Assembly (NCBI GenBank): GCA_049290495.1 | Contig: JBATNV010000318.1 | Location: forward strand, 4,709 to 68,708 | Origin: Gammaproteobacteria bacterium | Lineage (GTDB): Bacteria > Pseudomonadota > Gammaproteobacteria > Steroidobacterales > GCA-2729495 | Direction of reading: 5' to 3' | DNA: 64,000 bases | Part shown: positions 28,179-64,000 of the stretch, in pieces | Layout of the letters: each line of letters opens with the position of its first letter | Numbering within the stretch: the stretch's first letter is position 1 | Program-made: the position numbers and the translations under genes | Notes under the pieces: model-generated | Told to the model about the DNA's origin: nothing | Seen by the model: only the letters and a program-made list of their open reading frames with translations | Databases searched by the model: none

Positions 28179-28370
28179 CACCATCCCTGTCACAGCCTGC
28201 CCAAGACTGTGTGTGCATCTGACCTGATGCGCGGCGCCCAATCGCCTGCCAGCTAACCTAATGCATAGCGATTTGAACGAACTGTTAAGGCGGTCACAGA
28301 ACCCCGGGCCGCTGATAACGATAAATGCTCAACGGCGTGCAATGCGCCGCGTTACCGGGATGGGCACAAG

Positions 28371-29573
28371 GTGATTGTTACGCAACGAGGACGGCACAGA
28401 GCCGTCACTTCGAAGCTTGGGTCTGTGCGGCTGTTAAGGCAGTTGACTGCAATTGCGGCACTGACACTACTCAGCCAGACGGGCATCGCGGGGCCACGCG
28501 AGCAGGCCTGGCGCATGCACGAAAGACTCACGGGCATACCGCCTGATTCCATCGTACTTGAAAACATGCGCGCTGATATCGCCGGTGGCAATGCGGTCGC
28601 GGCCGCACAGATCGCCATGGAAAACAGTGCCTTTTACAACGTAACGCTGAAGAACTTTGTTGCGCCGTGGACCAATGAGGAGCAGAGCGTTTTCGTACCG
28701 CTGAACGACTACACCGCCACCGTGATCGGCATGGTGCGCGACGATGTGCCCTTCAACACGCTGCTCTCGGCAAATCTCGTTTACATCGGCTCAGGGTCGG
28801 GCATTCCTGCCTATTCGCCATCGAATAATGACCATTACCAGGCACTTGAAGACCAGAACGTTGATCTGAAACAGCGCCTGGTCGCCAGTACGCAGACGGC
28901 CGTGAGCGGCATGCCATCAAGCGCCACTGCCGGCGTCCTGACCACGCGCGCCGCTGCCGCCGCCTTCTTTGAAGCCGGCACCAACCGCGCCATGTTCCGC
29001 TTCACGATGATCAATCACATGTGCCGCGACATGGAGCAGGTACTCGACACCAGCGGCATCCCCGACCGGATCCGCCAGGACGTGTCACGCAGCCCCGGCG
29101 GCGACAGCCGGATCTTTCTTAACAACTGCATCGGCTGCCACATTGGCATGGATCCGATGACCCAGGCCTTCGCTTACTACAACTTCGACGCAGCACAGGG
29201 CCGGCTGGTCTATACGGACGGACAGGTGCAGGCGAAGTACTTCAACAACGACACGACCTTCCAGTACGGCTACCGGACGCCGAACGACAATTGGACGAAC
29301 TACTGGCGCCATGGCCAGAACCGGATACTCGGCTGGGACCCCAGCCGCAGCGGCAGCGGTGCAGGCGCGAAGACCATGGGCGAGGAACTCGCCAACAGCA
29401 CCGCCTTTGCGCAGTGTCAGGTGGAGAAGGTCTTCCGCAACGTCTGCCTCCGATCGCCGGTGGATGGTGCTGACCGCGCACAGATCGATTCGATGGTCGG
29501 CGATTTCCGCACGGGTGGCTATCACCTGAAGCAGGTGTTCGCCGAATCCGCCAGCTACTGCATGGGCAATTGA
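28371..29573 (+). CDS. CXXCH protein, DUF1588/PSCyt-like
   Basis: ..NNCIGCHIGMDPMTQAFAYYNFD.. resembles the C..CH..DP..F motif of planctomycete-type DUF1588 proteins. Signal-like N-terminus. Start uncertain (GTG 28371 or GTG 28425). Confidence 0.75.
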   Translation: MIVTQRGRHRAVTSKLGSVRLLRQLTAIAALTLLSQTGIAGPREQAWRMHERLTGIPPDSIVLENMRADIAGGNAVAAAQIAMENSAFYNVTLKNFVAPWTNEEQSVFVPLNDYTATVIGMVRDDVPFNTLLSANLVYIGSGSGIPAYSPSNNDHYQALEDQNVDLKQRLVASTQTAVSGMPSSATAGVLTTRAAAAAFFEAGTNRAMFRFTMINHMCRDMEQVLDTSGIPDRIRQDVSRSPGGDSRIFLNNCIGCHIGMDPMTQAFAYYNFDAAQGRLVYTDGQVQAKYFNNDTTFQYGYRTPNDNWTNYWRHGQNRILGWDPSRSGSGAGAKTMGEELANSTAFAQCQVEKVFRNVCLRSPVDGADRAQIDSMVGDFRTGGYHLKQVFAESASYCMGN

Positions 29574-29593
29574 GCGGGGATAACCGGGTGAAC

Positions 29594-48972: not shown

Positions 48973-51900
48973 CTAGAACTCGATACTTATGCTCCCGGAA
49001 ACCAGACGCCGCGTCGCCACGCGGGGACTGAGCGGGTCGATCTCGATGACATCAACCTCTTCGTCAAATACATTCCGCGCACCGAAGCTGATGGAGCCAA
49101 ACCGCCTGGGCAGCCGATATTCCAGCAGCACATCCGTAATCCAGCCGTCGTCTGTCTTCGGTACAACGGGAAAAACCGAGTCGATTGCGAAGTCGCCTTC
49201 CTGCCTTACGTAACTCGTCACCAGGCGCAGCGAGAGTCCGCGCGATCCAAACAGGGACACACCAAACGGCACCCGGATCGTTTCGAGCATATTGATTCCT
49301 TCAGGCCCGTTGTGCACCTGAGGCCGGTTCAGGTGTTCGTATTCGCCAGCCACAGAGAGCGCTGTATTCAGGCCAGCGCCAAAGCCGCTGCTGCGCCCGG
49401 ACACGAAGGTCTTGTACAAATAGATCCGGGCCGACTTTTCCCGCCAGGTGGTATCCGCATCGAGAATTGCCGATGGGACCTCAAGCTTCCGCAAGGCAGC
49501 TTCGAGACCGGCAAAAGCAGACGGGGACAGGGTCTGGTCGATTGCCATCCCCACCCGCCTGGAAACCGTACCTTCAGGATCGCCATAGAACTGTTCAAGA
49601 CCGGTAAAAAACTGATTGAAGCTCGCCACTTGCGTGGGCTCCAGGGTCTGTCCACCGATGAACGGGCGCCGCAGGGATGTGAAAGCCGCAGCACGCACTG
49701 TGGTGCCATCAGTCGGCGACCAGACCATGCCAAGCTTTGGACTGAGTTGCTTTCGATCGATAGCCGGCAAGCCAAAGCTGTACCTCAGCTTGAACAGATC
49801 CAGGGCCAGACCACCGGTCAAGCTCAGATCCAGATCCGCTACCTGCCACTGGCCATAGACGTAGGCATTCGCATCGTAGGTCTCGATAGTGCCCTGTTCG
49901 AGCGGAAAGTCTTCATTGACCTTGATATAGGCCACGCCAGAGACCAGCTGGGTATTGGCAACGTGGTCGAATCGTTGCAGCTCACCGGCATAGGTATCCG
50001 CATCAGTCCGGGTAACCAGTGAACCGTCCACCGGATAGATGACATCCCTTCGACGATCCTCATAAGCGAAGGTCCATATCCAGTCCCCACCCGGACTCGT
50101 CGCATGCCGTCCGTTGAACCTGAAAGCATCAGCTTTCTCATCGATCGTGACCGGAAAAGAATTCAATTCATCGAAAGCAAAGAAAGTGTAGCCAAGCTCA
50201 AACTCGGAGTGATTGACATCAAGCTGCAGTGAGGTTGCGGGAGATACCTCAAACTGCAGGAACCCGTCATAGACATCTTTTTTCGCCGCATTGTTGTCGT
50301 TGAAGCCATCCGTTTCATAGTGCAACTGACTGACTGCAAATCCGACATTCTTCTCCAATCCACTGACGATGAATTGATCTCCGGCTGTTCCACGTGATCC
50401 AGTCATCCCATCGGCCCGGATACGCAGCTGGTTCCGGTTAAACAGGGAATTGAACTCGTTGAGACCGATCCGGCTCGGCCCCGCTCCCTGGAGGACGCCG
50501 AGATTGTCAGTACTCGTCAGCAAATTGAGCGGGGGTGTCGAGAGAGGCTGTCTGACCTGCGCCTGAAACGCTTCGCTGACGCGGGAGATATCGTACCTCG
50601 GCAACGCGGCGTATGCGTTGGCGAGGAGTCGGTGCGCCGAGGAATTGCCGAAATTCTCAGCCAGGGCCTCGGTACCCTCGCGGACTGCCAAACCCTCGAA
50701 GCCCAGCTCGTTGTAGACAGCGGAGACTCCCGCGTTTCGTGCAGCGGCATCGTCATCGAGCAGGAGCTGTGAACGGTAGACCGCGCGGTTGTCGTTCAGC
50801 GCGACAGACTCGCGCAGTTCATTCAGCGCCTCGACTGGTTGGTTGGCCACCTGCTTACTGAACGCTTCATAGAACCACGGCGTTGGATCATTGGGATCAA
50901 GCCCTTTCGCCATCTCGAACTGCGAAGCCGCAAGCTTGTCGCGCTTCTCGTCGAAGTAAGCCTTGCCCATGTAGCTCCTGACCAGCGAGTTGTTCGGATC
51001 GAGAATCACGGCAATTTCAATGTCCTTCCGCCCTGCCTCCATCTCGCCTTCACGAATTTTCGCAAGTCCCAGTCCAAGACGCGGCAGCGGTGCATTGGGC
51101 TCCAGGCGAATTGCCTCGACAAACGAGTCCTTTGCGGCACTCAGCTGGATGCGACTTAGTTCTACAAAGCCAAGCACCGAATGGGCCAGCGAGAGCTGCG
51201 GATCAGCCGCCAGTGCCGCCTTCGCTTCCGCTTCGCTGCGCCCGAATTCACCGGAGGCCAGCCAGAGCTCGGCGAGTCGTGCGCGCAGCAGCGCGTTATC
51301 GGGTTGCGCCGCTGCCCCTGCCTCGAGGTCGCTGATGGCGCCCGGCAGGTCGAAGCGCGCTTGCCGCGCATAGGACCGCGCGAGTCGGGCAGCGGCGGAA
51401 TCCGGCGCAGCGGTTACGGCCTGATCGGCAGTTTTCAGGGCGGTTTCGGTGTCATCGCGCGTGAGCGCAATCACCGACTGCCTGGCCAGCACCTCGGCAC
51501 TGCCGGGAGCGAGACTCAGCCCACGGGCGAGATCAGTCTCGGCTTCAGACACCTGGCCAACGCGGAGGCGCTGCTCAGCGCGGCCGAGGAAAAGCGCCGC
51601 CGTCTGTTGCGCAGCCGTCACTTCGGCATCGGCGGCCGGCAACGGACCCGCAGTGATCGGCGGGTAATACAGCGTCCACACCACGGCATCGCGGGGCCGC
51701 ACAATCTGCTGCAGTACCGGCGCGCTGCCGGCGCGAGCCAGTACGCTCTCGCCGGAAGCGGCCGTTGCCGCACCTGCGCTGTTCTCGACCTTCACGCTGC
51801 CCTCGTAAACGATCACGGTGGTGGCATCGCTGCTCACGCCGACGAAGAACTCCGTGCCTTCGATACCGGCATTGGCGAAAGGCGTGATGACGCGCAGCGC

Positions 51901-52284
51901 ACGCGGGTCGCGGCTGATGACGTGGATCGCGCCCTTCAGGATATCGAGCCAGGTGCGCTTGTCGTCAGTGGGTGCGGCAAAAGTGATGACGGTGCCCTGA
52001 TCGATGCGGACCACGGTCTGATCCGGCAGCTCGAGAGCTACGCGACTGAAGGCGCCAACTTCAAGCACGTCGCCTACGCAGAAGTTCTGTTGCAGACCCG
52101 GCTGTGACACGCGCGCAATACCCGCGCGGCGCAGACTGACAGTGCCCTGACTGGAGAGCAGCCGGGCGACCCAGGCCTCACATTGCTGCGTGCCGGACGG
52201 CGCAATTTGTGCGTAGAGCGGGGTGCAGAGAACGATTGCACTCACAACGAGTACAACCAGGAGCGACGAGCGGATACGTACCAT
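48973..52284 (-). CDS. FecR-domain / TPR / TonB-dependent-receptor-like beta-barrel protein (about 1100 aa)
   Basis: Signal peptide. FecR-like ..VALELPDQTVVRIDQGTVITF..GIEGTEFFV... About 8 TPRs in the middle. C-terminal half is beta-strand-rich and ends ..LVSGSISIEF. Confidence 0.85.
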   Translation of the reverse strand: MVRIRSSLLVVLVVSAIVLCTPLYAQIAPSGTQQCEAWVARLLSSQGTVSLRRAGIARVSQPGLQQNFCVGDVLEVGAFSRVALELPDQTVVRIDQGTVITFAAPTDDKRTWLDILKGAIHVISRDPRALRVITPFANAGIEGTEFFVGVSSDATTVIVYEGSVKVENSAGAATAASGESVLARAGSAPVLQQIVRPRDAVVWTLYYPPITAGPLPAADAEVTAAQQTAALFLGRAEQRLRVGQVSEAETDLARGLSLAPGSAEVLARQSVIALTRDDTETALKTADQAVTAAPDSAAARLARSYARQARFDLPGAISDLEAGAAAQPDNALLRARLAELWLASGEFGRSEAEAKAALAADPQLSLAHSVLGFVELSRIQLSAAKDSFVEAIRLEPNAPLPRLGLGLAKIREGEMEAGRKDIEIAVILDPNNSLVRSYMGKAYFDEKRDKLAASQFEMAKGLDPNDPTPWFYEAFSKQVANQPVEALNELRESVALNDNRAVYRSQLLLDDDAAARNAGVSAVYNELGFEGLAVREGTEALAENFGNSSAHRLLANAYAALPRYDISRVSEAFQAQVRQPLSTPPLNLLTSTDNLGVLQGAGPSRIGLNEFNSLFNRNQLRIRADGMTGSRGTAGDQFIVSGLEKNVGFAVSQLHYETDGFNDNNAAKKDVYDGFLQFEVSPATSLQLDVNHSEFELGYTFFAFDELNSFPVTIDEKADAFRFNGRHATSPGGDWIWTFAYEDRRRDVIYPVDGSLVTRTDADTYAGELQRFDHVANTQLVSGVAYIKVNEDFPLEQGTIETYDANAYVYGQWQVADLDLSLTGGLALDLFKLRYSFGLPAIDRKQLSPKLGMVWSPTDGTTVRAAAFTSLRRPFIGGQTLEPTQVASFNQFFTGLEQFYGDPEGTVSRRVGMAIDQTLSPSAFAGLEAALRKLEVPSAILDADTTWREKSARIYLYKTFVSGRSSGFGAGLNTALSVAGEYEHLNRPQVHNGPEGINMLETIRVPFGVSLFGSRGLSLRLVTSYVRQEGDFAIDSVFPVVPKTDDGWITDVLLEYRLPRRFGSISFGARNVFDEEVDVIEIDPLSPRVATRRLVSGSISIEF

Positions 52285-52458
52285 CACAAAGCCCCCCCCA
52301 CGGCAGGCATGAGCAAAACTGGTACGGCGCAGGCCCCACGAACGACGCCGATTTTTATTGTTTAACACCGGACCCTGTCGGGTTCCGGCGTCGTTCAGTC
52401 TATGGACTTCTGCGGCAGCGCGCAACGGAAGCAGCGATGCTTTCTTAAGCCGGTCGCC

Positions 52459-54672
52459 TCACTTTCCGGACATACGGATGGCACCGTTCTCAAAGCTGTC
52501 GGGCCCGCTCGCGAGGTAACGGGCGCAGAGTTCCACGTAGAAACACACCGGCCCGTCATCGGCTTGCTCGCGGTGCAGACTGCCGAAAACATCCGCCGCC
52601 GTCTGCCAGCGCATCGCCCTGAACGCCGCTAACGCCGCTGCAAAACGCGCGTGCCGTTCGCCGACGATTGCATCGCGATCCGCATCCAGCAGTTCGTGGA
52701 TCACCAGCGGCCTCGACTTGCCGGCCAGCAGGAAGGTGCCAACGTCACGACTCGACAGGCCCCCGGTTTCTGCGAGCGTTTCGCCCGAGACAAGAATCCG
52801 CGTGCCGAGCTGCTTGTTGAGGCCTTCGATGCGCGAGGCGGTGTTGACGATGTCGCCGACCGCGCGAAATTCCATGTGACCGGCGCCGCCGATATTGCCC
52901 AGACGGATGGGCCCGGTATGCAGCCCGATGCGCGTGGGCAGTTGCGGCCGGCCCGGCAAGGCATTGAAGCGATCCACCGCTGCAGCCACGGCCAGTGCGC
53001 CGGCGCAGGCACACTCGCGGATCCTGTGGTCGGGTTTCGACACCGCCCATATGGCCATCATGGAATCGCCGACGACGTCGGTAACGACCCCCTCGCACGC
53101 TTCGACCTCGGCGAACATCACCGCGTAGTAGGCGTTCATCAGTGCCGCCAGTTCTTCCAGCGCCAGGGTCTCGGCGAGATGCGTGTACTGCTCGGCATCA
53201 GTCGCCATGCAGGTGCCGTGCAGAAGTTCGGCATTGGGCTGCAGATCGCCGAGATTCTGCATCAACTGGTCGAGCGCCCGTTTCGGCAGATAGGTGCCCA
53301 GCGCCTGCATGACGCGCTCGCGCTGCTTGCGCGTCTGCAAGTACTGCGCGAGCAGGCCGAGCAGCAGCGCGACCGGCAGCTGCACGAACAGCGGCACGAA
53401 CAGCGGCAGCCAGATGTTCATGGCATCGAAAACCCACCAGGCCCAGGCGCCATACAGCGGCACTGCGAACAGGCTGAAGGCGATCGTTGCCGGTGGCGTC
53501 AGCACGCGGCAAAAGCCACCCACGAGCAGCCCCCAGAAACCGATCACGAACAGTTCGGCCGGAAAGGACAAGGGCTTTATCGCGGTGCCGTCCAGCATGT
53601 TGGCAATTGCAGTCGCCGCGACTTCCACGCCGCTGATGTCGAGACCGGTGTGGTCCGAGAACACGGAGTAGAAGCCGTCCTTCTGCTCAGGTTGGAACTC
53701 GTCCGAAAACCCGACCAGCACGATCTTGCCGGCCAGTTCATCGCTGTCTCCGCGCAAGGCCTGCACATAAGGTAGCGTCCGCACGGTGCGCGCCGGCCCG
53801 TAATAGTTGAGGTAGCGGGTATCGGCGCCCGCGTAGAGTTCGAGCAGCGAGCGCAGTGCAGCTGGCTGCTGCTGCAACTGTTGCCACTCGGCATCCAGGG
53901 TAGCCAGCGCTGCCCCGTCAGTCGTCAGGCAGCTGCGCGCCTGTTGCAAAAGGCTGTCGATCTGACGTGCGGCGACCACCTCGGCGGTCGTGGCATGCAG
54001 CAATTGCGCCAACTCCGGACAGACCCGGCGCAGATCGGCAAACCACTCACCAGGCTGACGCAGCATCCAAGCCTGGAAGACAGTGGTCGGAAATGTCGCG
54101 AGGTTGCCGGCACTGGCCTTGAAGGTCCAGAACTGACTGACTCGTACCGGTACGACCGGCAAGGTGAATGGCGCGACCGCCAACGCACCGGCAGCGATCG
54201 ACGGCACCGGCGGAATGAGCTTCTCGGCGGTGAGCACGATCTGTCGATCCTGGCTCGCACCCACAGCGGTCTTTTTCAGGAAGACAGCCAGCACCACGTT
54301 GCCCGCTTGGTTCAGCGCTGCGCCCAGGCGCTCATCGCCGGAAGGCTCAGCTGGATCATCAAACAACACATCGAAGCCGACTACTGCCGCGCCTTCTGCA
54401 GCCAGGTGTTCGACGAGTTCTGCATGCAGGGTACGCGGCCATTTAGCGGGTATATTCGGCAGGCCGAAAGCATCGCTCGAGAATTTGTCGAGACCGATCA
54501 CCACCACTTCGGCGGGCGCCTCGCGCGGGCCGCGCAGGAGGAACAGGGTGCCGAGGCCGAAGTCTTCTTCGACTCGCAGCACTGCGGGTACGGCACCGGC
54601 GAGCATCCCAAACAGCGTTGCCAGCAGGCCAAACAGGGCAAACTGCGGCGCCCTGAGGATCATCGCGTCCAC
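52459..54672 (-). CDS. CHASE2-sensor class III adenylate/guanylate cyclase
   Basis: N-terminal CHASE2 (..VVVIGLDKFS..WPR..), TM cluster, cyclase domain (..CMATDAEQYTHLAE..VGDSMMAIW..RIGLHTG..VGDIVNTASRIEG..). Confidence 0.9.
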   Translation of the reverse strand: MDAMILRAPQFALFGLLATLFGMLAGAVPAVLRVEEDFGLGTLFLLRGPREAPAEVVVIGLDKFSSDAFGLPNIPAKWPRTLHAELVEHLAAEGAAVVGFDVLFDDPAEPSGDERLGAALNQAGNVVLAVFLKKTAVGASQDRQIVLTAEKLIPPVPSIAAGALAVAPFTLPVVPVRVSQFWTFKASAGNLATFPTTVFQAWMLRQPGEWFADLRRVCPELAQLLHATTAEVVAARQIDSLLQQARSCLTTDGAALATLDAEWQQLQQQPAALRSLLELYAGADTRYLNYYGPARTVRTLPYVQALRGDSDELAGKIVLVGFSDEFQPEQKDGFYSVFSDHTGLDISGVEVAATAIANMLDGTAIKPLSFPAELFVIGFWGLLVGGFCRVLTPPATIAFSLFAVPLYGAWAWWVFDAMNIWLPLFVPLFVQLPVALLLGLLAQYLQTRKQRERVMQALGTYLPKRALDQLMQNLGDLQPNAELLHGTCMATDAEQYTHLAETLALEELAALMNAYYAVMFAEVEACEGVVTDVVGDSMMAIWAVSKPDHRIRECACAGALAVAAAVDRFNALPGRPQLPTRIGLHTGPIRLGNIGGAGHMEFRAVGDIVNTASRIEGLNKQLGTRILVSGETLAETGGLSSRDVGTFLLAGKSRPLVIHELLDADRDAIVGERHARFAAALAAFRAMRWQTAADVFGSLHREQADDGPVCFYVELCARYLASGPDSFENGAIRMSGK

Positions 54673-54681
54673 CGCCTGGCT

Positions 54682-55371
54682 TCAGTCGCGCTCATCGCGG
54701 ACGCGACGCAGGCTGTCTGGATCGCGGATCACCACCCGGCCGCGGGCCAGGTCGATCCATCCCCGCTTGCGCCACTGTTGCAAGTGCTGATTGACGATCT
54801 GGCGCGAGACACTCATGAAGCCGGCCAAGTCCGCCTGCGAGATCTGCAGCACCATGAGGCCATCGACCGTGCTGCCGTGTTCCTCTGCCAGCTTCATCAG
54901 CCGTCGCGCCAGCCGCGCCGGAACAGACAGGAACGCTGCCTCCTCGATCAGATCGCTGGTCCAGCGCAGGCGCTTGCACAGTAGTTGCAGGAGGTGCGTG
55001 GCGAGGCAGGGCTCTTTCTCGATCAGGGCCAGAAAGTCAGCGCGGCGAATGACGAAAAGTTCCGTGTCGCTCAGTGCATCGGCCGTGGCGGTGCGCGGAT
55101 GGCCGTCGAGTGCAGCGATCTCGCCAAAGCTGTCGCCGGACTCGAGGATATTGAGGAACACCTCCTGTCCGCCGGGTGTGCTGGCGCTGATCCGCACCTG
55201 CCCGGAGATCAGGCCCAGCAGCGCATCACCGGGCTCACCCTGGGCAAAGATGCGGCTGCCGCGGCCGTATGAACGGCGGATCGCGAGCGCGGCCAGCTTG
55301 TCGATGGCCGACTCCGGCAGACTGCCGAGGAGCAGATTGGCTTTCAACACGCTGCGAGCGGTCAGGGTCAT
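54682..55371 (-). CDS. Crp/Fnr-family cNMP-binding transcriptional regulator
   Basis: ..GEPGDALLGLISGQVRIS..GDSFGEIAALDG.. and HTH ..ISQADLAGFMSVSRQIVNQHLQQW.. Lies 9 nt upstream of the cyclase gene. Confidence 0.9.
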   Translation of the reverse strand: MTLTARSVLKANLLLGSLPESAIDKLAALAIRRSYGRGSRIFAQGEPGDALLGLISGQVRISASTPGGQEVFLNILESGDSFGEIAALDGHPRTATADALSDTELFVIRRADFLALIEKEPCLATHLLQLLCKRLRWTSDLIEEAAFLSVPARLARRLMKLAEEHGSTVDGLMVLQISQADLAGFMSVSRQIVNQHLQQWRKRGWIDLARGRVVIRDPDSLRRVRDERD

Positions 55372-55815: not shown

Positions 55816-55905
55816 CGACCATGCGCCCGGCACCCGGACCGGACCCCCAGCATGGACATCAGCAATCAGCACAATCTGCTCGTACCCCTCCTGCCGGAGA
55901 GCGCA

Positions 55906-56100
55906 ATGAAGTTCGGCGTCCGCGTCGGTCTGCCCGCTGCTGACCCCTTGAGCGACGTGCTCGGTGCAGACTGGCAGCGCGAGCACTGGTTTGCGACCGC
56001 TGCTGCGCGCGATGCAGCCTTGCGCGAAATGGCACGGCGTCATCCTTTCAGCCGGATTGGCGACACGCCGAGCATCCGCCTGGAAGCTATCCAGCGTTAA
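55906..56100 (+). CDS. small protein (64 aa), hypothetical
   Basis: GC3-rich codons. Ends 12 nt before the TonB-dependent receptor start. Confidence 0.3.
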   Translation: MKFGVRVGLPAADPLSDVLGADWQREHWFATAAARDAALREMARRHPFSRIGDTPSIRLEAIQR

Positions 56101-56112
56101 CCCGACGCGACG

Positions 56113-58167
56113 GTGATTCGTCTGCGACAAGGACTGGCCAGCGGCCTCGCAGCGTTTTTCATCGCTGCTACGGCAACTGCCGCTGACCGCACCCTACCCG
56201 AAGAAATCGTCGTCACCGCCACCCGCTATCCGGTGGCAGCACTCGATCTGGCCGGTAACACCGCCCGCCTTGATACAGAGCGCATTGAACTGCTGAATGC
56301 CAGTCATATCCATGAAATCACGGCAGAGATTCCCGGCACCTGGATCACGCGCGGCAGCGGCCAGGAAAGCATCACTGCAATCCGCTCACCGGCCCTAACG
56401 GGACCAGGTTCCTGCGGCAGCTTCCTGTTTCTGGAAGACGGCGTCGCCATCCGGCCGACCGGCTTCTGCAATGTGAACGAAACCTTCGAGATGGTGTCGG
56501 AACTCGCCAGCGCCATCGAGGTGATCCGCGGGCCGGCTTCAGCGCTGTATGGCTCGAATGCCCTGCACGGCACGCTGAACGTACTGTTGCCCGAGCCGGG
56601 GCCGGACACGCTTTATGTCAGCGGCGAGGCTGGACCGGACAGTTTCATGCGCGGCAAGCTGATCTGGGGCAACGGTACCGGGAGCGGCGATGGCCTGATC
56701 GGCGGCCTGGTCTACGATCACAGCGATGACTTTCGCGACTCGGCCGGTTACAGCCAGGCCAAGGGTTTTCTGAAGTACGGGACTGATCTGCGCGGCGGTC
56801 AGCTCGAACTTGCTTTCAGCGGCACCCTGCTTGATCAGGACACGGCCGGATTCATATACGGCGAGAACGCCTACCGGGACGAATCGCGACGCCACACCAA
56901 CAGCAACCCGGATGCCTATCGCCGGGCAAACAGCCAGCGTTTCAACGCCAGCTGGCAGCCGGATGGCAACCGGGCCGATGACGGCTGGAAACTGATCGGC
57001 TTCCTGCGCCGTTCCGAAATGGATTTCCTGCAACATTTTCTGCCCGGCCAACCGGTGGAAAAAAACGGACAGTGGAGCGGCGGCGCCACCCTGCTGCGCT
57101 ATACGACACTCGGTCCGGCACGGATCACTGCCGGCTTCGATACCGAAATCGCCGACGGCTACCTGAAAGAAACCCAGGAAAGCGCGGACACCGGCAACCG
57201 GCCGCAGGGCCGGCACTACGATTACGATGTCTGGCAGTATCTCGCCTCGCCTTATGCACAGGCTGAGCTGCCGCTGAATGCACGGTGGGCGCTGACCGGC
57301 GGCCTGCGCTTTGAATGGCTGCGCTATGACTACGACAACCGGATGCTGGATGGAAATACGCGCGAGGATGGCACTGCATGTACACCGCCCTGCCTTTACA
57401 GCCGCCCGGCTGACAGCAGCGAGAACTATACAAATCTGGCACCGAATCTTGGCCTGCTGTTCCGGCTGGATGCGGAAAATTCGGCCTACCTCACGCTGAC
57501 GCGCGGTTTTCGCGCACCGCAGGCAGCGGAACTCTATCGCCTGCAGGCCGGACAGAATGTCGCTGACCTCCATTCCGAAACCATCGACAGCCTCGAACTT
57601 GGCTGGCATCACCAGTCAGCGCATCTGGATCTGTCCGTTGCAACATTTGCCATGCACAAGGACCACTACATCCTGCAGGACTCCAACCGCTATAACGTCA
57701 GTGATGGCGAAAGCCGGCATGTCGGCGCTGAACTCGACGCCGAAGCGCGGCGCGACAACGGACTCTATGCCGGAATTGCCGCGACCTGGATAAAACAGAC
57801 CTACGCCTTCAGTCAGCAGATCGCCGGCGGTGAAACCATCACCTCGGGCAATGACATCGATACAGCACCGCGCACGCTGGGCAGCCTGCATATCGGCTGG
57901 TCAGTCAACCCGTGGCTGGCGGAAATCGAATGGATACACCAGGGCAGCTATTACCTGACCGCGCAGGAAAACCAGCGCTACGGCGGTCACGATCTCTTCA
58001 ACCTGCGCGCCGCCTGGTCGGTCAACCGGGAATGGCGCGTCACGGCGCGCATCAACAATCTCAACGACACCCTCTACGCCGATCGCGCCGACTACGCCTT
58101 CGGCGAATATCGCTACTTCCCCGGCCACGACCGGGAGCTGTTTCTTGAACTCAGCTACCAGCGCTGA
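56113..58167 (+). CDS. TonB-dependent receptor
   Basis: Signal peptide; TonB box-like ..EEIVVTATR..; plug (..IEVIRGPASALYGSNALHGTLNV..); long barrel. Confidence 0.9.
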   Translation: MIRLRQGLASGLAAFFIAATATAADRTLPEEIVVTATRYPVAALDLAGNTARLDTERIELLNASHIHEITAEIPGTWITRGSGQESITAIRSPALTGPGSCGSFLFLEDGVAIRPTGFCNVNETFEMVSELASAIEVIRGPASALYGSNALHGTLNVLLPEPGPDTLYVSGEAGPDSFMRGKLIWGNGTGSGDGLIGGLVYDHSDDFRDSAGYSQAKGFLKYGTDLRGGQLELAFSGTLLDQDTAGFIYGENAYRDESRRHTNSNPDAYRRANSQRFNASWQPDGNRADDGWKLIGFLRRSEMDFLQHFLPGQPVEKNGQWSGGATLLRYTTLGPARITAGFDTEIADGYLKETQESADTGNRPQGRHYDYDVWQYLASPYAQAELPLNARWALTGGLRFEWLRYDYDNRMLDGNTREDGTACTPPCLYSRPADSSENYTNLAPNLGLLFRLDAENSAYLTLTRGFRAPQAAELYRLQAGQNVADLHSETIDSLELGWHHQSAHLDLSVATFAMHKDHYILQDSNRYNVSDGESRHVGAELDAEARRDNGLYAGIAATWIKQTYAFSQQIAGGETITSGNDIDTAPRTLGSLHIGWSVNPWLAEIEWIHQGSYYLTAQENQRYGGHDLFNLRAAWSVNREWRVTARINNLNDTLYADRADYAFGEYRYFPGHDRELFLELSYQR

Positions 58168-58228
58168 AGGTACTCAAGGATCTGAATCTGCACGCAGCTT
58201 GTACTCGCACTGCGTATAAAGCCGGCGT

Positions 58229-60319
58229 TCAGGCCCAGCCTGACCAGTCACCGCGGTTCTCAACGACGTGAAACAGCGCCGCGATGACGCGGCGGTCGAA
58301 CTGCGTACCGGCACCGCGCAAGAGTTCTGCCAGCGCATCGTCCATCGACATGCCCTGCCGGTACGCACGCGCACTGACCAGCGCAACGAAGGCGTTGGCG
58401 ACTGAAAGTATCCGCCCGGACAGGCTCATCTGTTCTTCAGTCAGGCCGCGCGGATAGCCGCTGCCGTCCAGACGTTCCTGCTTCTGCGCAATCACATCCA
58501 GCACCGGGCCATCAAAATCCAGGCCCTTGAGAAGCTCCAGGCTGTAGGCGACATGCTTTTGCAGCAGCTCGCGGTCGGCTGATGTGAGCGGCTCTGTCTT
58601 CAACAGCAAATCGCCGGGCAGCATGATCTTGCCGATGTTGGCCAAGGTCGCCGCCAGGCCCAGCGTCGCCTGCTCGTCCGCCGGCAGCTCAAGTTCGCGC
58701 GCCACAGCCTGCGCCACCTCGGCCATGCGGTTTGCGTGATGCGCCGAGTATGGATCGTGGAGGTCTACGGCATCTGAAAGCGCGCCGACCAGGCTGCGCA
58801 GCATGTCGGCGTGATGCTGCTCGGCCAGACGCAGGTCGGTGACATCGTTCAACACCAAGAGGACCAGTTGTCTTCGCTCGCCGATCCGCTCGACAGGTAT
58901 GAAGCTGGCCTGGTAACTGCCCAGCGTGGAATCGATCTGCAACTGCATCACGCGCTGTACCGGGACACGCTGCCGGCGCGCTTCGTCGCTGAGCGCAGCG
59001 ATCTCGGCCGCCATATTTGTGCCGAATATCGCGCTGATCCGGCTGCCGACCATGCCGGCTATCGTGTTCTTTACCGCGTTCGCCGTGGCCTGGTTGGTAA
59101 ACACCACTTCCTGATCGCGGTTCATGAGCACGGTCAGCACATCGATATTGTCGGTAATCGTATGCAGGAGATCGGTCTGTTTCTGCAGCTTGGCTGCCTT
59201 GCTGCGCAGTTCTTCCGCCTGATGCCGCGCGCGCACGCTGCTGCCGTGGCGCCACGCCGCTACTGCAAGCGTCGCGATACTGAACAGCAGCAGGGACAGC
59301 GTCGCGAGCAGGAAGCGCCGGCGCTCATCGGCTGTGCTCAAGGCATCCTTCGCGTTGACGCCCTGTATCAGCACCCACGGCTCGCCGGCGGATACCAGAC
59401 CACGGATCCGCCGGCTGACCTGCAACATCGGTACACCGCGATAGTTGTCGAGGCTCACGAATTCGCCCGGCGACAGCACAGCGGCAACTTCAGCAAGATC
59501 GGAGCGCTCGATCGGCAGGCTGCGGCGCAAAGGCGCACCGCCGTCCGGTGTCGGCGAGAGAAAGACGATGGTGTCGTCGTGGCGCGCCACCAGCAGGGTT
59601 TCACTGTCTTCGGCAAAGGCCGGCCCGCGACTGAGCAGCGGATAGAGCTCCTGCTCGGCACTGCGCACACCGATCAGCACGCCATTGGGTGGGCCGCCAC
59701 CGGTCAGGGAGCCGGACACCGCAGCCACCGATACCGCGATCACCACGACGGCGCGGTCCTGGGGATCGAGCCGCAGATCGACCAGCGTCGTGCCCGGACT
59801 CGCGAGTGCGTGGCGCATCACGTCACCATAGCTGTCTGCAAGCTCGCCGAGACCCGGCGTGACCACCACCGGCCGAAGTTCGGCATCGAGCAGCGCCAGA
59901 CCGTAGCTGAGCGAACGCGGCAGGTTGGCCGGCACACGGGTTGCGGGATCGGGCATATAGCCGCCGCGCTCAGCCGCTGCGAGCATCAGGTTGCGCAGAT
60001 AGGCCTGCTGTGCCGACTCGACCTGTACGCCATCCGGCGTCTGCTGCTGGCGCGCACGCACCAGCTGCCACAGGTAGAGCTGCAGCGATGCATTGTTGGC
60101 CAGTTCGCGGAGATCGCGCTGATCGGCAGCCAGCGACCGGGCCAGCGCATCGGCCTTGCTGTCGGCCACCAGGCCGAGGCGTGTCTCCCATTGCAGGAGA
60201 TCGCGCTGTCGTTCGTTCTCTATATATATGTTGATCAGCAGTCCGCCGATACCGATCAGCACCACCAGGGCGAGAATAGCGGCCATCACAGACCGCCGGA
60301 TATTCAGCTGCTCGGTCAT
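58229..60319 (-). CDS. membrane sensor with periplasmic domain, PAS and degenerate HD-GYP domain
   Basis: Two TM segments flank a periplasmic region of about 310 aa. PAS-like segment. HD-GYP-like ..HDPYSAHHANRM..LANIGK..KQERLDGSGYPRGL..ANAFVAL.. ATGA overlap with the upstream BTLCP gene. Confidence 0.85.
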   Translation of the reverse strand: MTEQLNIRRSVMAAILALVVLIGIGGLLINIYIENERQRDLLQWETRLGLVADSKADALARSLAADQRDLRELANNASLQLYLWQLVRARQQQTPDGVQVESAQQAYLRNLMLAAAERGGYMPDPATRVPANLPRSLSYGLALLDAELRPVVVTPGLGELADSYGDVMRHALASPGTTLVDLRLDPQDRAVVVIAVSVAAVSGSLTGGGPPNGVLIGVRSAEQELYPLLSRGPAFAEDSETLLVARHDDTIVFLSPTPDGGAPLRRSLPIERSDLAEVAAVLSPGEFVSLDNYRGVPMLQVSRRIRGLVSAGEPWVLIQGVNAKDALSTADERRRFLLATLSLLLFSIATLAVAAWRHGSSVRARHQAEELRSKAAKLQKQTDLLHTITDNIDVLTVLMNRDQEVVFTNQATANAVKNTIAGMVGSRISAIFGTNMAAEIAALSDEARRQRVPVQRVMQLQIDSTLGSYQASFIPVERIGERRQLVLLVLNDVTDLRLAEQHHADMLRSLVGALSDAVDLHDPYSAHHANRMAEVAQAVARELELPADEQATLGLAATLANIGKIMLPGDLLLKTEPLTSADRELLQKHVAYSLELLKGLDFDGPVLDVIAQKQERLDGSGYPRGLTEEQMSLSGRILSVANAFVALVSARAYRQGMSMDDALAELLRGAGTQFDRRVIAALFHVVENRGDWSGWA

Positions 60320-60966
60320 GGCGCGCGCGGAACGTGAATCCACCAATGGGCTTCATTGATGGAAAATACCGGTGCGTAGTGGACGACATCACGCTGCGAC
60401 AGTACCGCCTGTACCTGGTTGTCGAGAATAAAAACGTCCATGCCGCGCGCGACTGCCAGCACCGCATGCGGGACGCGCAGATTGGTGTCCTGCACGATCA
60501 CCAGGCGCAGGTCGTCGTCCGCAAGGCCAAGCCAGCGCAGCGAGAAAAACTTGGTGATGGCGTAGTCCTCACAGTCGCCGCCGTTGCTCAAAAACTCTCT
60601 GGGAATGGCCCAGTAATCCTCAACGCCGTAGTTCTGCAGATCGAGCACGTAATTGCGGCTGTTGGCGTAGAGGTTTACGGCCTTCAATTGCTCGCGTACC
60701 GGCAGCGTGCGGGTCTGGTCGATAAAGCGCCGCCACTCCGCCATATGACAACGATTGATCATCCGCGCGCTGCAGTCACCGTCCTGCAGATTATCGGTCA
60801 GCTGTCTTTCGAGGACCCGCAGCCATTGGGGAAAGTCGGCCAGCCGCTGCTGCGGCTCCTCGGCATAGCCGAACAGGTCCGCAGGAAAGGCCTGGGCTAC
60901 ATTCTGGCCAGCACCGTACAGACCGATCGCAAGCGTCAGTAGAGTTGCTTTAACAGAAGCCGACAT
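60316..60966 (-). CDS. transglutaminase-like cysteine peptidase (BTLCP / peptidase C93, LapG-like)
   Basis: Signal peptide; ..NGGDCEDYAITKFFSLRWLG.. (Cys), ..PHAVLAV.. (His), ..FILDN.. (Asp). Confidence 0.85.
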   Translation of the reverse strand: MSASVKATLLTLAIGLYGAGQNVAQAFPADLFGYAEEPQQRLADFPQWLRVLERQLTDNLQDGDCSARMINRCHMAEWRRFIDQTRTLPVREQLKAVNLYANSRNYVLDLQNYGVEDYWAIPREFLSNGGDCEDYAITKFFSLRWLGLADDDLRLVIVQDTNLRVPHAVLAVARGMDVFILDNQVQAVLSQRDVVHYAPVFSINEAHWWIHVPRAP

Positions 60967-61035
60967 GCTTGATTTGAGCTATGGATCGTCATCAAGTAAG
61001 GTGCACAAGTGTTTGCGACTAGAACAAAAAGGATT

Positions 61036-62316
61036 ATGGAAAGCAAGCTCTTACGCCGATTATCACCGGCCCCCTTCCTGGCCCTGCTGCTCGTTTGCAC
61101 GCCGCTGCTCGCAGATCAGCTGCAGGACGACTTTGACCAGGCCATGCAGGCTGTCGACCAGAACAAGCTGCGCACTGCGAGGGAACGTTTGACCAGCCTG
61201 CTGGCTACAAACCCGAGCCTGAGCCGGGCGCGGCTCGAACTTGCCCGGGTGTACTACCTTGCCGAGGACTATCCCAAGGCGCGCGAGGAAGCACAGCGTG
61301 TCGCCGATGACCCGAACACACCGCCATCGGTACGCGCCACCGTGCTCGCATTTCTCGCGCAGATAGATGCCGACCAGAAGAATGGCACGGGGCGACATCA
61401 CTGGACACCTTCAATCTATGCCGGACTGATGTATGACTCCAACGTCAACGTCGGCCCGTCACGCGACATCATCGACATCAACGGCACCCCCGCCACCGTA
61501 CTTCCCGAATCGCAGGAGAAGGACGACTGGGCGATGGTGATCAGCCCCGGTATCGCGCACACCTGGAATCCTGGCAAGCGCTTCGACGCCGGCGAACAGC
61601 AGGGATATTTCCTGTGGCAGAGCCAGGCCAACGCCTACTACCGCGCCTATGCCGATGAAACCGATTACAACCTCGGTATCCTGACCTTGCGCACCGGTCC
61701 CGCCTGGATCGTGCCGGGACACTGGCGCGCCGGCATCGGCCTGCAGGGCGACCAGATTTTTCTTGGCGGCGACAACCTGGCCTGGTTCACGACGCTGAAC
61801 CCGAACATCACCTGGGAACTCGGCAACAATACCGAACTGTCGCTGGATGGCATCGCCACCGATCGCCGCTATCACGACAACGATGAGGACGGGCGGGAAG
61901 GCGTGTACCTGAGCGCGAACGCAATCCTTAGCCATTACTACAGGAACCGGACTATCGGCATACAGGCCGGTATCGGCTATGCCAACTTCAATGCGGACGA
62001 TGATCGTTTTGGGTATGACGCACCCGATCTGATGCTTGGCGTGATCGTCGAGGCCTGGCAGGGCGGCTCGGTCTACGCGCGGGTCAACTATCGGCATTAC
62101 GAGTTCGACGGGCCCGAGCCTGCACCCTTTGCGCCGGCAGTGCGCGACGAGGACGAAATCCGTATCGCCGTCGGCTTTCAGCATCAGTTCCGCAGCGATG
62201 CGTTGCAGAACTGGGTGCTGCTCGGCAGCTGGGTGCACACCAACAACAACTCGAACGTCGCAATCTATGAGTATGACCGCGACGTCGTAAATCTCGGTAT
62301 GGCGCGCAATTTCTGA
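61036..62316 (+). CDS. Slam-like (DUF560) outer-membrane protein: N-terminal TPR plus beta-barrel
   Basis: Signal peptide MESKLLRRLSPAPFLALLLVCTPLLA. TPR region (..RARLELARVYYLAEDYPKAREE..). Barrel ends ..YEYDRDVVNLGMARNF. Confidence 0.8.
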   Translation: MESKLLRRLSPAPFLALLLVCTPLLADQLQDDFDQAMQAVDQNKLRTARERLTSLLATNPSLSRARLELARVYYLAEDYPKAREEAQRVADDPNTPPSVRATVLAFLAQIDADQKNGTGRHHWTPSIYAGLMYDSNVNVGPSRDIIDINGTPATVLPESQEKDDWAMVISPGIAHTWNPGKRFDAGEQQGYFLWQSQANAYYRAYADETDYNLGILTLRTGPAWIVPGHWRAGIGLQGDQIFLGGDNLAWFTTLNPNITWELGNNTELSLDGIATDRRYHDNDEDGREGVYLSANAILSHYYRNRTIGIQAGIGYANFNADDDRFGYDAPDLMLGVIVEAWQGGSVYARVNYRHYEFDGPEPAPFAPAVRDEDEIRIAVGFQHQFRSDALQNWVLLGSWVHTNNNSNVAIYEYDRDVVNLGMARNF

Positions 62317-62492: not shown

Positions 62493-63641
62493 ATGAAAAC
62501 TCTCAGCCTGTTAGCCGTTCTGTTTTTGTTCGCATCTCCGCTGGCAGCGACTGCTGCCGGCGCACCGCAATCTGATGCCGACTGCGCCGCCCTGATCGAG
62601 CGCTGGGCGACCGATCCCAAGGCTGCACCGAAACAGGTTATCAACGACTGCAAGGACCAGCTGGCTCGCGCTTCGGCGCTGCCAGTCGCGGCAGCATCCG
62701 TGCAGATGGCTGCCGTCGATCCCTGCGCGGGACCCGGTGCGGCAGACTCGGTGCTCTGCTGGGGACCGTGGGCCAGCGTTGCGCCAGCAGCCGCCGGTTT
62801 CACCCCCGACATCTCACAGGCATCCGTACCGGATCGCGATATCTGCAATGCACGTACCGAGCAATGCCAGCCTCTGGTCGCCGAAGCGCCACCCGAGCTG
62901 CCACTCGGGAGCTGCACACCTGGGACGCCGTGTGGATTTGCTACGGTCGTCAGCGGCACCGCTTTCACGGATGACGCAGAGGACACGGCGTTCGGACGCT
63001 TTGACATGGCGCCCGACAGCAGCCGCTTCAGCATCGCACCGGAAAGCGGCGGCGAAAACATCGAGTCGGTAGGGATGACCACCTATCCCGACGGTCCGGG
63101 TTATATCCGCGCCAACGGCAGCGAGGGAGATCTCCTTTCCTATCTGAATGCCAGCATAGAACAGGATGGCGAGGGACAGGCACTGATCGCCTCTGATCTG
63201 TGGGCCCACGGCACGCTCGAAAATGCCCGGTCAGGTCGTTTTGCATGGGGCATTGCCACCAGCCAGCCCGGGCTCGACACGCTCAACGCGGGCAATGTCA
63301 GCCTGAACTTTGCAGGGGCGATGGGGGTGGATCCCACCACGGTCGGCTCCATGACCATCGCCTTCGGCACCAACCCGACTTGGACCGGTACCTGGACCAA
63401 CCCCGCTTACAGCTTCGGTGCCGGTGGCACGGTGAGTGGTGCAGATCTGATTTCACAACCAGGGCAGTTCACGAGTAATGTCAACGCGGCCCAGAGCTTC
63501 GTGCAGGGCGCACTGGTTGGCGAACAGGGTGCCCCACGCGGCATAACTCACATCATTGACGTCACACTCGAAGGACAGGGCCGCATCAAGGATATAGGCC
63601 TGCTCCGCGAAGTGATCGCCACACCTGTCATCAGCCCATAA
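62493..63641 (+). CDS. secreted protein with Cys-rich N-terminal half and TbpB-like C-terminal beta-barrel (candidate Slam cargo)
   Basis: Signal peptide MKTLSLLAVLFLFASPLAATAAG with no lipobox Cys. C-terminus ..VSLNFAGAMG..SMTIAFG..WTGTW..YSFGAGGTVSGADL..VQGALVGEQGAPRGITHIIDV.. resembles the 8-strand barrel of Slam-dependent surface proteins. Confidence 0.7.
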   Translation: MKTLSLLAVLFLFASPLAATAAGAPQSDADCAALIERWATDPKAAPKQVINDCKDQLARASALPVAAASVQMAAVDPCAGPGAADSVLCWGPWASVAPAAAGFTPDISQASVPDRDICNARTEQCQPLVAEAPPELPLGSCTPGTPCGFATVVSGTAFTDDAEDTAFGRFDMAPDSSRFSIAPESGGENIESVGMTTYPDGPGYIRANGSEGDLLSYLNASIEQDGEGQALIASDLWAHGTLENARSGRFAWGIATSQPGLDTLNAGNVSLNFAGAMGVDPTTVGSMTIAFGTNPTWTGTWTNPAYSFGAGGTVSGADLISQPGQFTSNVNAAQSFVQGALVGEQGAPRGITHIIDVTLEGQGRIKDIGLLREVIATPVISP

Positions 63642-63666: not shown

Positions 63667-64000
63667 ATGCAAAAAATCCAACGCCTGACTGCCACGCTGC
63701 TGCTGATCGTTACCGGTACTGCCGCGCAGGCTGCCAGTCTCGCTCTCATGCCCTCTGCCGATACGGTGCAGCAGTTCGGCGCCTTTACCGTGAACCTGGT
63801 GCTCAATGCTGCGGGCGCGGAAGTAAAAGGCACGCACCCGGGACAGCACGGTGGCGAAATCAAGGTGAGCTTCGACCAGACCTTGTTGCGCTACGATGGC
63901 TTCAGCCTGGCGAGTGGTCTCGGCTTTATCTACTCACCGGCGGTCACCACGAGTGGCAATACCCAGACAGTACGGCTCGGTTTCAACAAGGCTGCTGATA
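63667..64000 (+). CDS. secreted protein, possibly cohesin-domain-like (partial, runs off the window end)
   Basis: ATG at 63667; signal peptide ..LLLIVTGTAAQA; ..FTVNLVLNAAG..IKVSFDQTLLRYDGF.. No stop before 64000. Confidence 0.5.
   Translation, partial: MQKIQRLTATLLLIVTGTAAQAASLALMPSADTVQQFGAFTVNLVLNAAGAEVKGTHPGQHGGEIKVSFDQTLLRYDGFSLASGLGFIYSPAVTTSGNTQTVRLGFNKAAD

Follow-up and report, generated by a model that had tools for sequence, protein, structure and literature searches.

A 64,000-nt stretch of gammaproteobacterial DNA (the window, numbered throughout on its plus strand) contains two overlapping genes, one encoding a secreted cysteine protease of the BTLCP family and the other a 696-aa inner-membrane receptor with a degenerate HD-GYP domain. 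The two proteins probably form an inside-out switch of the type known from DvhD and DvhG, whose protease cleaves a neighbouring 382-aa protein that resembles a type 11 secretion cargo. The observations at this locus and its relatives concern the anatomy of the genes, their homology and fold, the conservation of a motif and the co-occurrence of the genes. By homology to DvhD/DvhG, the receptor would bind a cyclic dinucleotide, most likely cyclic di-GMP (c-di-GMP), through its dead HD-GYP domain without hydrolysing it, and the signal would run from there through the PAS domain and stalk and the transmembrane helices to the periplasmic dCache domain, which in its nucleotide-bound state would restrain the protease, a product of the same transcript. 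A drop in the nucleotide level would then set the protease free. For the identity of the substrate, its route of export and the consequence of cleavage, we infer that the freed protease cuts the 382-aa TbpB/fHbp-like beta protein at LAPAA(G/A), in a disordered linker between an N-terminal module and the beta domain. This beta protein would be handled by an adjacent Slam/type 11 secretion-like outer-membrane protein, and the cut would separate its surface domain from the periplasmic N-terminal part, leading to release or relocalisation.

In Desulfovibrio (Nitratidesulfovibrio) vulgaris, the BTLCP protease DvhG (DVU1019) is encoded beside DvhD (DVU1020). This membrane protein of 701 aa combines a dCache domain in the periplasm with a PAS and an HD-GYP domain, and the latter has no metal ligands, HD being replaced by SQ and HH by MN (PNAS 2024, PMC10990149; Nat Commun 2026, PMC13090378). 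The PAS/HD-GYP part has an affinity of 99-322 nM for c-di-GMP, and none of the metals tried led to hydrolysis. DvhD restrains DvhG-dependent adhesin cleavage in a c-di-GMP-responsive manner, and in a reconstituted system it counteracts DvhG so that biofilm and surface adhesin are regained, again in dependence on c-di-GMP (PMC10990149; PMC13090378). A first-pass annotation of the window had proposed a LapD/LapG-style switch in which a degenerate HD-GYP domain replaces the degenerate EAL domain, and regarded this arrangement as uncharacterised. The proposed switch appears to hold up by its homology to DvhD/DvhG; the arrangement itself has already been characterised in that system (PMC10990149; PMC13090378).

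Both genes lie on the minus strand. The protease gene (60316..60966; Peptidase C93, LapG/DvhG-like) is an open reading frame (ORF) of 216 aa with a signal peptide, and the DvhD-like receptor gene (58229..60319; transmembrane segment, dCache, transmembrane segment, PAS, degenerate HD-GYP) encodes 696 aa from its ATG, or 705 aa from an alternative TTG start at 60346. The TGA stop of the protease and the ATG start of the receptor share the sequence ATGA at 60316..60319, an overlap that had been noticed in the first-pass annotation and that the plus-strand bases TCAT confirm. An identical 4-nt overlap is found in three of the related loci (numbered here from L001), namely L002, L003 and L015. The order of protease then receptor occurs in every examined genome with a receptor orthologue at 53-96% identity, and the protease gene adjoins the receptor gene in all receptor-bearing loci. 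Since the pairing recurs in all of these genomes, it is not due to chance. A scan of 58000-61300 found no promoter-like sites, and terminator-like sites were no more frequent there than in shuffled sequence. Alignment of the divergent intergenic region between the protease gene and the Slam-like gene revealed conservation only among near-identical genomes and no shared operator.

The protease matches Pfam Peptidase_C93 with 3.5e-17 and 63.1 bits, against a cutoff of 27. All the motifs by which it had first been recognised are present, with GGDCEDYA starting at residue 129, HAVLAV at 167 and ILDN at 180. The catalytic residues C132, H167 and D182 and the sequence D131-C-E133 are invariant in six BTLCP orthologues, and D131 and E133, which flank the catalytic cysteine, match the calcium ligands D316 and E318 of DvhG. 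The closest solved relatives are LapG of Legionella and of P. fluorescens (4fgo and 4u65, about 1e-19), although the score for the NCBIfam LapG equivalog NF045674 (87.1 bits) does not reach its cutoff of 320. The window protease carries a signal peptide and lacks a transmembrane anchor.

The proposed substrate and type 11 secretion cargo is the 382-aa secreted protein encoded at 62493..63641 on the plus strand, which consists of a signal peptide of the signal peptidase I type, a hairpin, a linker and a beta domain. Its AlphaFold 2 (AF2) model has a predicted local distance difference test score (pLDDT) of 85, in which the helical hairpin (residues 28-61) is modelled confidently, the linker with low confidence and the beta domain (140-375) very confidently; the final eight strands of this domain (residues 270-373) reach a pLDDT of 97-98. 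Foldseek matches of the protein are enriched for Slam cargoes, among them TbpB (E 4e-5), fHbp (probability 0.98-0.99), NHBA and the hemophilin HphA (0.91). A profile of the cargo found no match among PDB sequences, and the family is small, with 73 representatives among 1.84 billion.

Within the linker lies the candidate cleavage motif, S86-G102 (SVLCWGPWASVAPAAAG; 62748..62798, plus strand), for which the family consensus is S-V-x-x-W-G-x-W-x-x-L-A-P-A-A-G. The first-pass annotation had suggested searching the genome for a LapG-type di-alanine motif, and in the form WGxWxxLAPAA(G/A) it was found next door. In an alignment of 34 representatives with identities down to 22%, W90, G91, W93 and P98 are invariant, and S86, L96, A99 and A100 are conserved in at least 90%. 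WGxWxxLAPAAG is the best-conserved element of the family, holding within a span of 15 residues four of the nine invariant and four of the 17 nearly invariant columns (8/26), and it falls in a region modelled as disordered. LapG and DvhG cut between the two alanines of [T/A/P]AAG (PMC13090378). This consensus is matched by 27 of the 34 representatives, and PAA by 29 of them. Hydrophobic residues lie three to eight positions before PAAG and may correspond to the docking residues F95 and F99, which precede the DvhG cleavage site in DvhA (PMC13090378). A second possible LapG site, TAAG within LAATAAGAPQ (residues 17-26), was rejected; it is not conserved in L001 and L002 and sits at the predicted signal-peptidase cut.

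Upstream of the cargo gene, and divergent from the protease gene across a gap of about 69 bp, the Slam/type 11 secretion-like outer-membrane protein is encoded at 61036..62316 on the plus strand. It has an N-terminal TPR part and a DUF560/SlipAM barrel, with Pfam matches to SlipAM (29.1 bits, cutoff 22) and TPR_16 (34.1 bits, cutoff 32.7) and a weak one to TPR_Slam. Its orthologues match the same Pfam families, and no match was obtained against PDB sequences. At 63667..64000 (plus strand) starts a gene whose translation is a VPLPA-CTERM (PEP-CTERM-type) protein of about 196 aa and which runs past the window end. Signals of this type serve exosortase-dependent sorting. The L003 orthologue matches TIGR03370 with 35.8 bits against a cutoff of 25.35. 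Full-length copies, secreted and about 190 aa long, were seen in L003 (6066-6656), L002 (6006-6584) and L001 (6050-6652), and the gene lies 3' of the 382-aa gene in most loci. The protein weakly resembles the flocculation protein PepA. A gene for a YcbB/LdtD-like L,D-transpeptidase (L003:4878-6053, L001:4735-6027, L002:4803-5987, L014:4359-5531; PG_binding_1 and YkuD domains; NF007891 1.7e-69) closes the operon and falls beyond the window end.

Together these genes make up a six-gene module that is common to five genomes with receptors at 53-96% identity, in the order L,D-transpeptidase, VPLPA-CTERM protein of about 190 aa, secreted protein of about 380 aa, Slam-like protein and, divergently, BTLCP protease and receptor, while the remaining neighbours differ. 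Among uncultured Gammaproteobacteria and metagenome-assembled genomes of Chromatiaceae-like type, orthologues of the receptor make up a large family, and a genome-contig search with the receptor returned only relatives at 89-96% identity, all of them metagenome-assembled genomes. A metagenome scan with a six-sequence alignment of the cargo yielded 36 further loci, and hidden Markov models of each module protein were scanned over the six-frame ORFs of the loci. Co-occurrence was counted in 34 non-redundant cargo-found loci, each count being limited to loci with enough flank; because these loci were found through the cargo, the counts are not biased toward the receptor. The divergent protease was present in 20/20, the Slam-like gene upstream of the cargo gene in 24/26, the DvhD-like receptor in 14/18, the L,D-transpeptidase after the cargo gene in 13/16 and the VPLPA-CTERM protein in about 16-18 of 22. 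With the protease count complete and the others lower, the tightest link in the module is that of protease to cargo, as a protease-substrate pair predicts. The motif is found in all 29 cargo sequences from these loci in which the motif region was recovered.

The frequent presence of the transpeptidase hints that peptidoglycan attachment or remodelling belongs to the system, and it suggests a different outcome of the same switch. Cleavage might serve maturation or anchoring, with the PAA|G cut making an N-terminus that an L,D-transpeptidase links to peptidoglycan; conversely, the protein might first be tethered to peptidoglycan by its mature N-terminus, through the transpeptidase, and be freed later by the protease. 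The gene's place after the cargo gene in most cargo-found loci speaks for such a role, as do the short-form cargoes without a folded N-terminal plug module, and work on Brucella and Agrobacterium is said to have established that L,D-transpeptidases can join protein N-termini to peptidoglycan. However, no conserved N-terminal residue or motif follows the predicted signal-peptide cut, L017, L019 and L047 have no adjacent transpeptidase gene, and enzymes of the LdtD type are known more for forming 3-3 cross-links than for attaching proteins. Both versions taken together are considered unlikely.

Another explanation would be that the protease and receptor control a LapA-like adhesin of type 1 secretion that is encoded in another part of the genome and that the Slam operon is an incidental neighbour. 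The characterised LapG and DvhG substrates in the Lap and Dvh papers are indeed all large adhesins, and the view of the genome is confined to 64 kb. Against this, the protease gene accompanies every cargo-found locus that could be counted while cargo identities range over about 31-74% and other flanking genes vary, and the neighbour protein carries an invariant motif of the PAAG type. The Lap analogy of the first-pass annotation also implied a giant adhesin exported by type 1 secretion. The tested ORFs of the window, and the genes lying within 10 kb in L001, L002, L003, L014, L015, L017 and L019, include neither type 1 secretion genes (ATP-binding cassette, membrane fusion and TolC-like proteins) nor a giant repeat adhesin. 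A distant adhesin as the true target has a low probability.

The receptor itself was correctly outlined in the first-pass annotation, which had described two transmembrane segments around a large periplasmic domain, a PAS-like segment and an HD-GYP domain. Hydropathy places the transmembrane segments at residues ~10-32 (60224..60292, peak 2.93) and ~335-357 (59249..59317, peak 2.37), and between them lies a periplasmic domain of about 300 aa (residues ~33-334; 59318..60223), assigned as dCache by AF2 model and Foldseek. A cytoplasmic PAS domain follows at residues 390-497 (58829..59152), with a PAS_4 match of 3e-4 and 21.4 bits that lies just under the cutoff of 23.1; the region aligns with the PAS domain of DvhD in 9rc0, and residues 404-686 align continuously with that structure. 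The degenerate HD-GYP domain occupies residues 514-678 (58286..58780; HD_5 1.2e-42). All of these features are on the minus strand, and Pfam matches of the receptor are limited to HD_5, HD and PAS_4.

For the periplasmic domain, a profile search of PDB sequences gave no meaningful match (best E 0.16, a glutamate receptor), so the link to DvhD was drawn by fold comparison. The AF2 model (pLDDT 84, predicted TM-score 0.80) has a broken first helix, made up of helices 2-42 and 45-60, and its top Foldseek match in the PDB is 9rc2, the periplasmic domain of DvhD (E 6e-9, TM-score 0.75), with the dCache domains of DctB, PctA and CtaA ranking below it. The most conserved periplasmic stretch, NASLQLYLWQ (residues 76-85), starts the second segment of this broken helix. 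In DvhD, an AlphaFold 3 model proposes this second segment as the DvhG-binding surface (PMC13090378), and NASLQLYLWQ may possibly be the corresponding protease-binding surface of the window receptor.

In the HD-GYP domain, the replaced metal ligands reported in the first-pass annotation are all present, in LANIGK (residue 559), KQERLDGSGYP (613) and ANAFVAL (641). HD has become A560-N561, HH has become K613-Q614 and two aspartates have become N642 and V645, while the first histidine (H528), H589, E615, D618 and the GYP signature are retained, in line with the survival of the first histidine region and GYP that had been described. Among 118 full-length family members, 115-118 have these same replacements (AN, KQ, N and V), and such fixation points to selection for a non-catalytic role. 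Comparison with active HD-GYP proteins and with Bd1817 had also been suggested. The best PDB sequence matches are the DvhD entries 9rc0 (PAS/HD-GYP, 1.3e-36) and 9rbz (HD-GYP, 5e-34), followed at lower rank by the active V-cGAP3 (1.8e-26), PmGH (2.3e-22) and PA4781 (3.7e-14) and by Bd1817 (1e-5), and the ligand positions are degenerate as in DvhD. By BLASTP, the receptor has 32% identity to DvhD over 281 aa (E 6e-40), in PAS/HD-GYP only, the comparison covering this part of DvhD; a 283-aa DvhD fragment rebuilt from the PDB alignment retrieved, as a query, only proteins of at most 493 aa, with 59% identity at best, apparently owing to a length filter. The published criterion for DvhD homologues is a BLASTp E below 1e-50 with coverage of at least 85% of DvhD. 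Position by position, A560-N561 corresponds to S-Q of DvhD, K613-Q614 to M-N, and N642 and V645 to N and C. The DvhD contacts Y523, L577, Y621, R650, Y652 and bridging-site P567 are kept, and the equivalents L578, Y622, R651 and P568 are invariant in the receptor family; conservative changes are K582 to R/Q and M646 to L. Since most DvhD contact residues are kept, binding of a cyclic dinucleotide by the receptor HD-GYP domain is likely.

Several observations weigh against the proposed switch or parts of it. The periplasmic domain of the receptor resembles DvhD in fold only, not in sequence. The receptor is missing in 4/18 modules (L045, L046, L049 and L054), and this subclade indicates that the protease-cargo pair can exist without the c-di-GMP module; in L017, the Slam-like gene is missing. 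For the cargo, TM-scores to Slam cargoes are only 0.2-0.57, and no Pfam or NCBIfam match was obtained. The fourth position of the motif is frequently alanine instead of glycine. In family members that lack the N-terminal cysteine-containing module, the motif persists some 10-15 residues past the signal peptide, so that a folded retention plug like that of LapA is not general. For this genome, the absence of type 1 secretion genes and a giant adhesin covers 64 kb, and a LapA-like adhesin may be encoded elsewhere in it. In the ligand site, the equivalent of DvhD Glu668 (receptor residue 670, nt ~58310-58312) is alanine in 116/118 family members, and the equivalents of bridging-site K520 and R569 are H and E/D, respectively. 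Glu668 makes a guanine-specific contact in DvhD and reads the guanine amino group (PMC13090378). With these changes, ligand affinity, specificity (c-di-GMP or 3'3'-cyclic GMP-AMP, 3'3'-cGAMP) and stoichiometry may differ from DvhD.

The loss of the Glu668 equivalent would also fit a receptor that responds to another nucleotide, for example 3'3'-cGAMP, which DvhD itself binds with a dissociation constant (Kd) of ~0.5 uM, or one that works mainly outside-in through a periplasmic dCache ligand, dCache domains being typical small-molecule sensors (PMC10990149; PMC13090378 for DvhD binding). On the other hand, the remaining contacts of the canonical site are conserved and no ligand was found for the dCache domain of DvhD (PMC10990149; PMC13090378). 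Such a change of input, to which we give a small chance, would alter the input and leave the architecture of the switch as it is. That the domain is an active phosphodiesterase of an ordinary sensor enzyme is very improbable, as six metal-ligand positions (A, N, K, Q, N, V) are replaced family-wide and the same positions are lost in DvhD, which hydrolysed nothing with any metal offered, despite the strong HD_5 match and the retained H528, H589, E615, D618 and GYP.

A DvhD/DvhG-type switch acting on the neighbouring cargo can be extended to the whole module, although in this form the proposal is speculative and rather doubtful. The six genes might constitute a c-di-GMP-gated, protease-releasable surface display built on type 11 instead of type 1 secretion, in which a small TbpB/hemophilin-like protein, either passing through the Slam-like protein or delivered by it, is held at the cell by its N-terminal part, possibly tethered to peptidoglycan by the L,D-transpeptidase, and cut at LAPAAG on loss of the nucleotide. 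The Lap paradigm, in which a c-di-GMP receptor and a BTLCP protease govern the release of an adhesin, has so far concerned giant adhesins, namely type 1 substrates and CdrA, a two-partner secretion substrate. From DvhD it is clear that the receptor module is exchangeable, and the present locus family suggests the same for the target module, with a small protein of the Slam/type 11 type in its place. If this is true, LapG-type proteolysis would reach a third secretion route, and for type 11 secretion the switch would be the first regulatory partner known and the first post-translational regulator of one of its cargoes. A nutrient-capture protein would then toggle between a cell-bound (TbpB-like) and a free (hemophore-like) mode, and 'orphan' BTLCP genes in environmental Gammaproteobacteria would in part be explained.

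Some of the related loci deviate from the common layout. L017, from a complete 2.96-Mb genome (CP128988.1, 707846-728850), contains only the triad of receptor, protease and cargo, and its receptor has the same AN, KQ, N, V pattern. L017 and L019 occupy the same place in the chromosome, flanked by pssA-like and leuA genes, and L019 has a Slam-like gene and a TonB-dependent receptor in addition; the cargo at this site is without the N-terminal cysteine-containing hairpin. The loci without a DvhD-like receptor (L045:6010-6783, L046, L049:7647-8399 and L054) contain protease, Slam-like protein, cargo and transpeptidase, and there the protease gene is followed by gltB (glutamate synthase genes) or by a gene for a 555-aa polytopic membrane protein. 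In one genome bin (MFD09964.bin.1.363), the whole module occurs twice, as L009 and L012, on separate contigs. Every module gene of L012 is broken across several frames, and in L009 the cargo gene is broken; the cause is frameshift errors of the assembly or the decay of a duplicate.

Convergent with the receptor gene, a TonB-dependent receptor is encoded at 56113..58167 on the plus strand (Pfam Plug and TonB_dep_Rec_b-barrel). It is present in L002, L003, L006-L010, L012, L019, L023, L024, L026, L030 and L044 and absent from L001, L014, L015 and L017, and is part of the module in one subclade only. Upstream of it lies an 82-aa ORF (55852-56100) with no family match; a called gene of equal length stands beside the TonB-dependent receptor in L002, L003 and L004, the match being one of length and position. 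A minus-strand cluster of a regulator, a cyclase and a barrel protein lies beside the module at 48973-55371 and is absent at the corresponding place in L003, the receptor of which is 96% identical. The regulator (54682-55371) is a Crp-family cyclic nucleotide (cNMP)-binding protein, the cyclase (52459-54672) is a CHASE2-class III nucleotide cyclase, and the barrel protein (48973-52425; 1150 aa) combines FecR and TPR with a TonB-receptor-like barrel. Two further genes are unrelated to the finding, one encoding a 900-aa protein with a match to the hydrazine synthase alpha middle domain (25539-28241, minus strand, 8.8e-17) and the other an 825-aa protein with a Laminin_G_3 domain (29570-32047, plus strand).

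Among known systems, type 11 secretion is the closest to the presumed export half of the module. As in the Slam/type 11 systems of TbpB, fHbp and HphA (PMC12282271; 10.1101/2020.01.20.912956), a TPR and DUF560 gene stands beside a gene for a secreted beta-barrel-type protein, and in many loci a TonB-dependent receptor gene is close by. The signal peptidase I-type signal of the cargo is like that of the soluble hemophilin class. Unlike known type 11 cargo, the protein has no match to Pfam TbpB-type models and carries an N-terminal helical hairpin and a linker with a protease site. In neither of these two publications on type 11 secretion are HD-GYP, PEP-CTERM or transpeptidase partners mentioned; one of them each was checked for BTLCP (as 'transglutaminase') and for c-di-GMP, and neither term occurred. 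Among the papers listed in a literature search, none joined DUF560/type 11 secretion with LapG/BTLCP, and in the literature available none joined 'surface lipoprotein assembly' with 'c-di-GMP'.

With LapD/LapG/LapA of Pseudomonas fluorescens and its relatives, the window system would share the use of a degenerate c-di-GMP enzyme domain as a receptor, inside-out signalling, control of a periplasmic BTLCP protease and a predicted di-alanine cleavage near the substrate N-terminus. In contrast to LapD, the window receptor has no LapD_MoxY_N, HAMP, GGDEF or EAL domain by Pfam, and in contrast to LapA, the presumed substrate has about 380 aa and is probably not exported by type 1 secretion. That a LapG-type protease can release a surface protein outside the classical LapA-type type 1 secretion substrates has a precedent in LapG-CdrA of Pseudomonas aeruginosa (PMC4694147). 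CdrA, however, is a large adhesin under LapD control, whereas the window cargo is small and TbpB-like, with a Slam-like partner and a DvhD-like receptor. Bd1817 of Bdellovibrio (PDB 3tm8) likewise has an HD-GYP fold with lost catalytic residues; unlike the receptor, it is soluble and of different architecture, and it is a far weaker match (1e-5 as compared to 1e-36 for DvhD).

The closest relative of the pair is DvhD/DvhG of D. vulgaris Hildenborough (PDB 9rbz, 9rc0 and 9rc2), where a BTLCP gene is likewise followed by a gene for a receptor of about 700 aa with the order transmembrane segment, dCache, transmembrane segment, PAS and degenerate HD-GYP. Identical metal-ligand positions are lost and most c-di-GMP contacts are kept, with the HD-GYP numbering offset by one residue, and the protease shares with DvhG the C-H-D triad, D-C-E around the cysteine and a [T/A/P]AAG-type site in the presumed substrate. 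The receptors differ in that sequence identity, at 32%, is limited to PAS/HD-GYP and the dCache domains are alike in fold, not in sequence, and in the alanine for Glu668 and the changed basic residues of the bridging site. While Hildenborough DvhG has a transmembrane anchor, the window protease has a signal peptide, and where the Dvh operon has type 1 secretion and giant adhesin genes, a Slam-like operon encoding a small beta protein is conserved here. The DvhG homologues examined in a published supplementary table belong to Desulfovibrionales and Alphaproteobacteria, whereas the window pair is gammaproteobacterial, from Chromatiaceae-like metagenome-assembled genomes. Thus, receptor-protease pairing of the DvhDG type was already known, and what the window adds to it is a gammaproteobacterial member and a predicted coupling to a cargo of the Slam/type 11 type.

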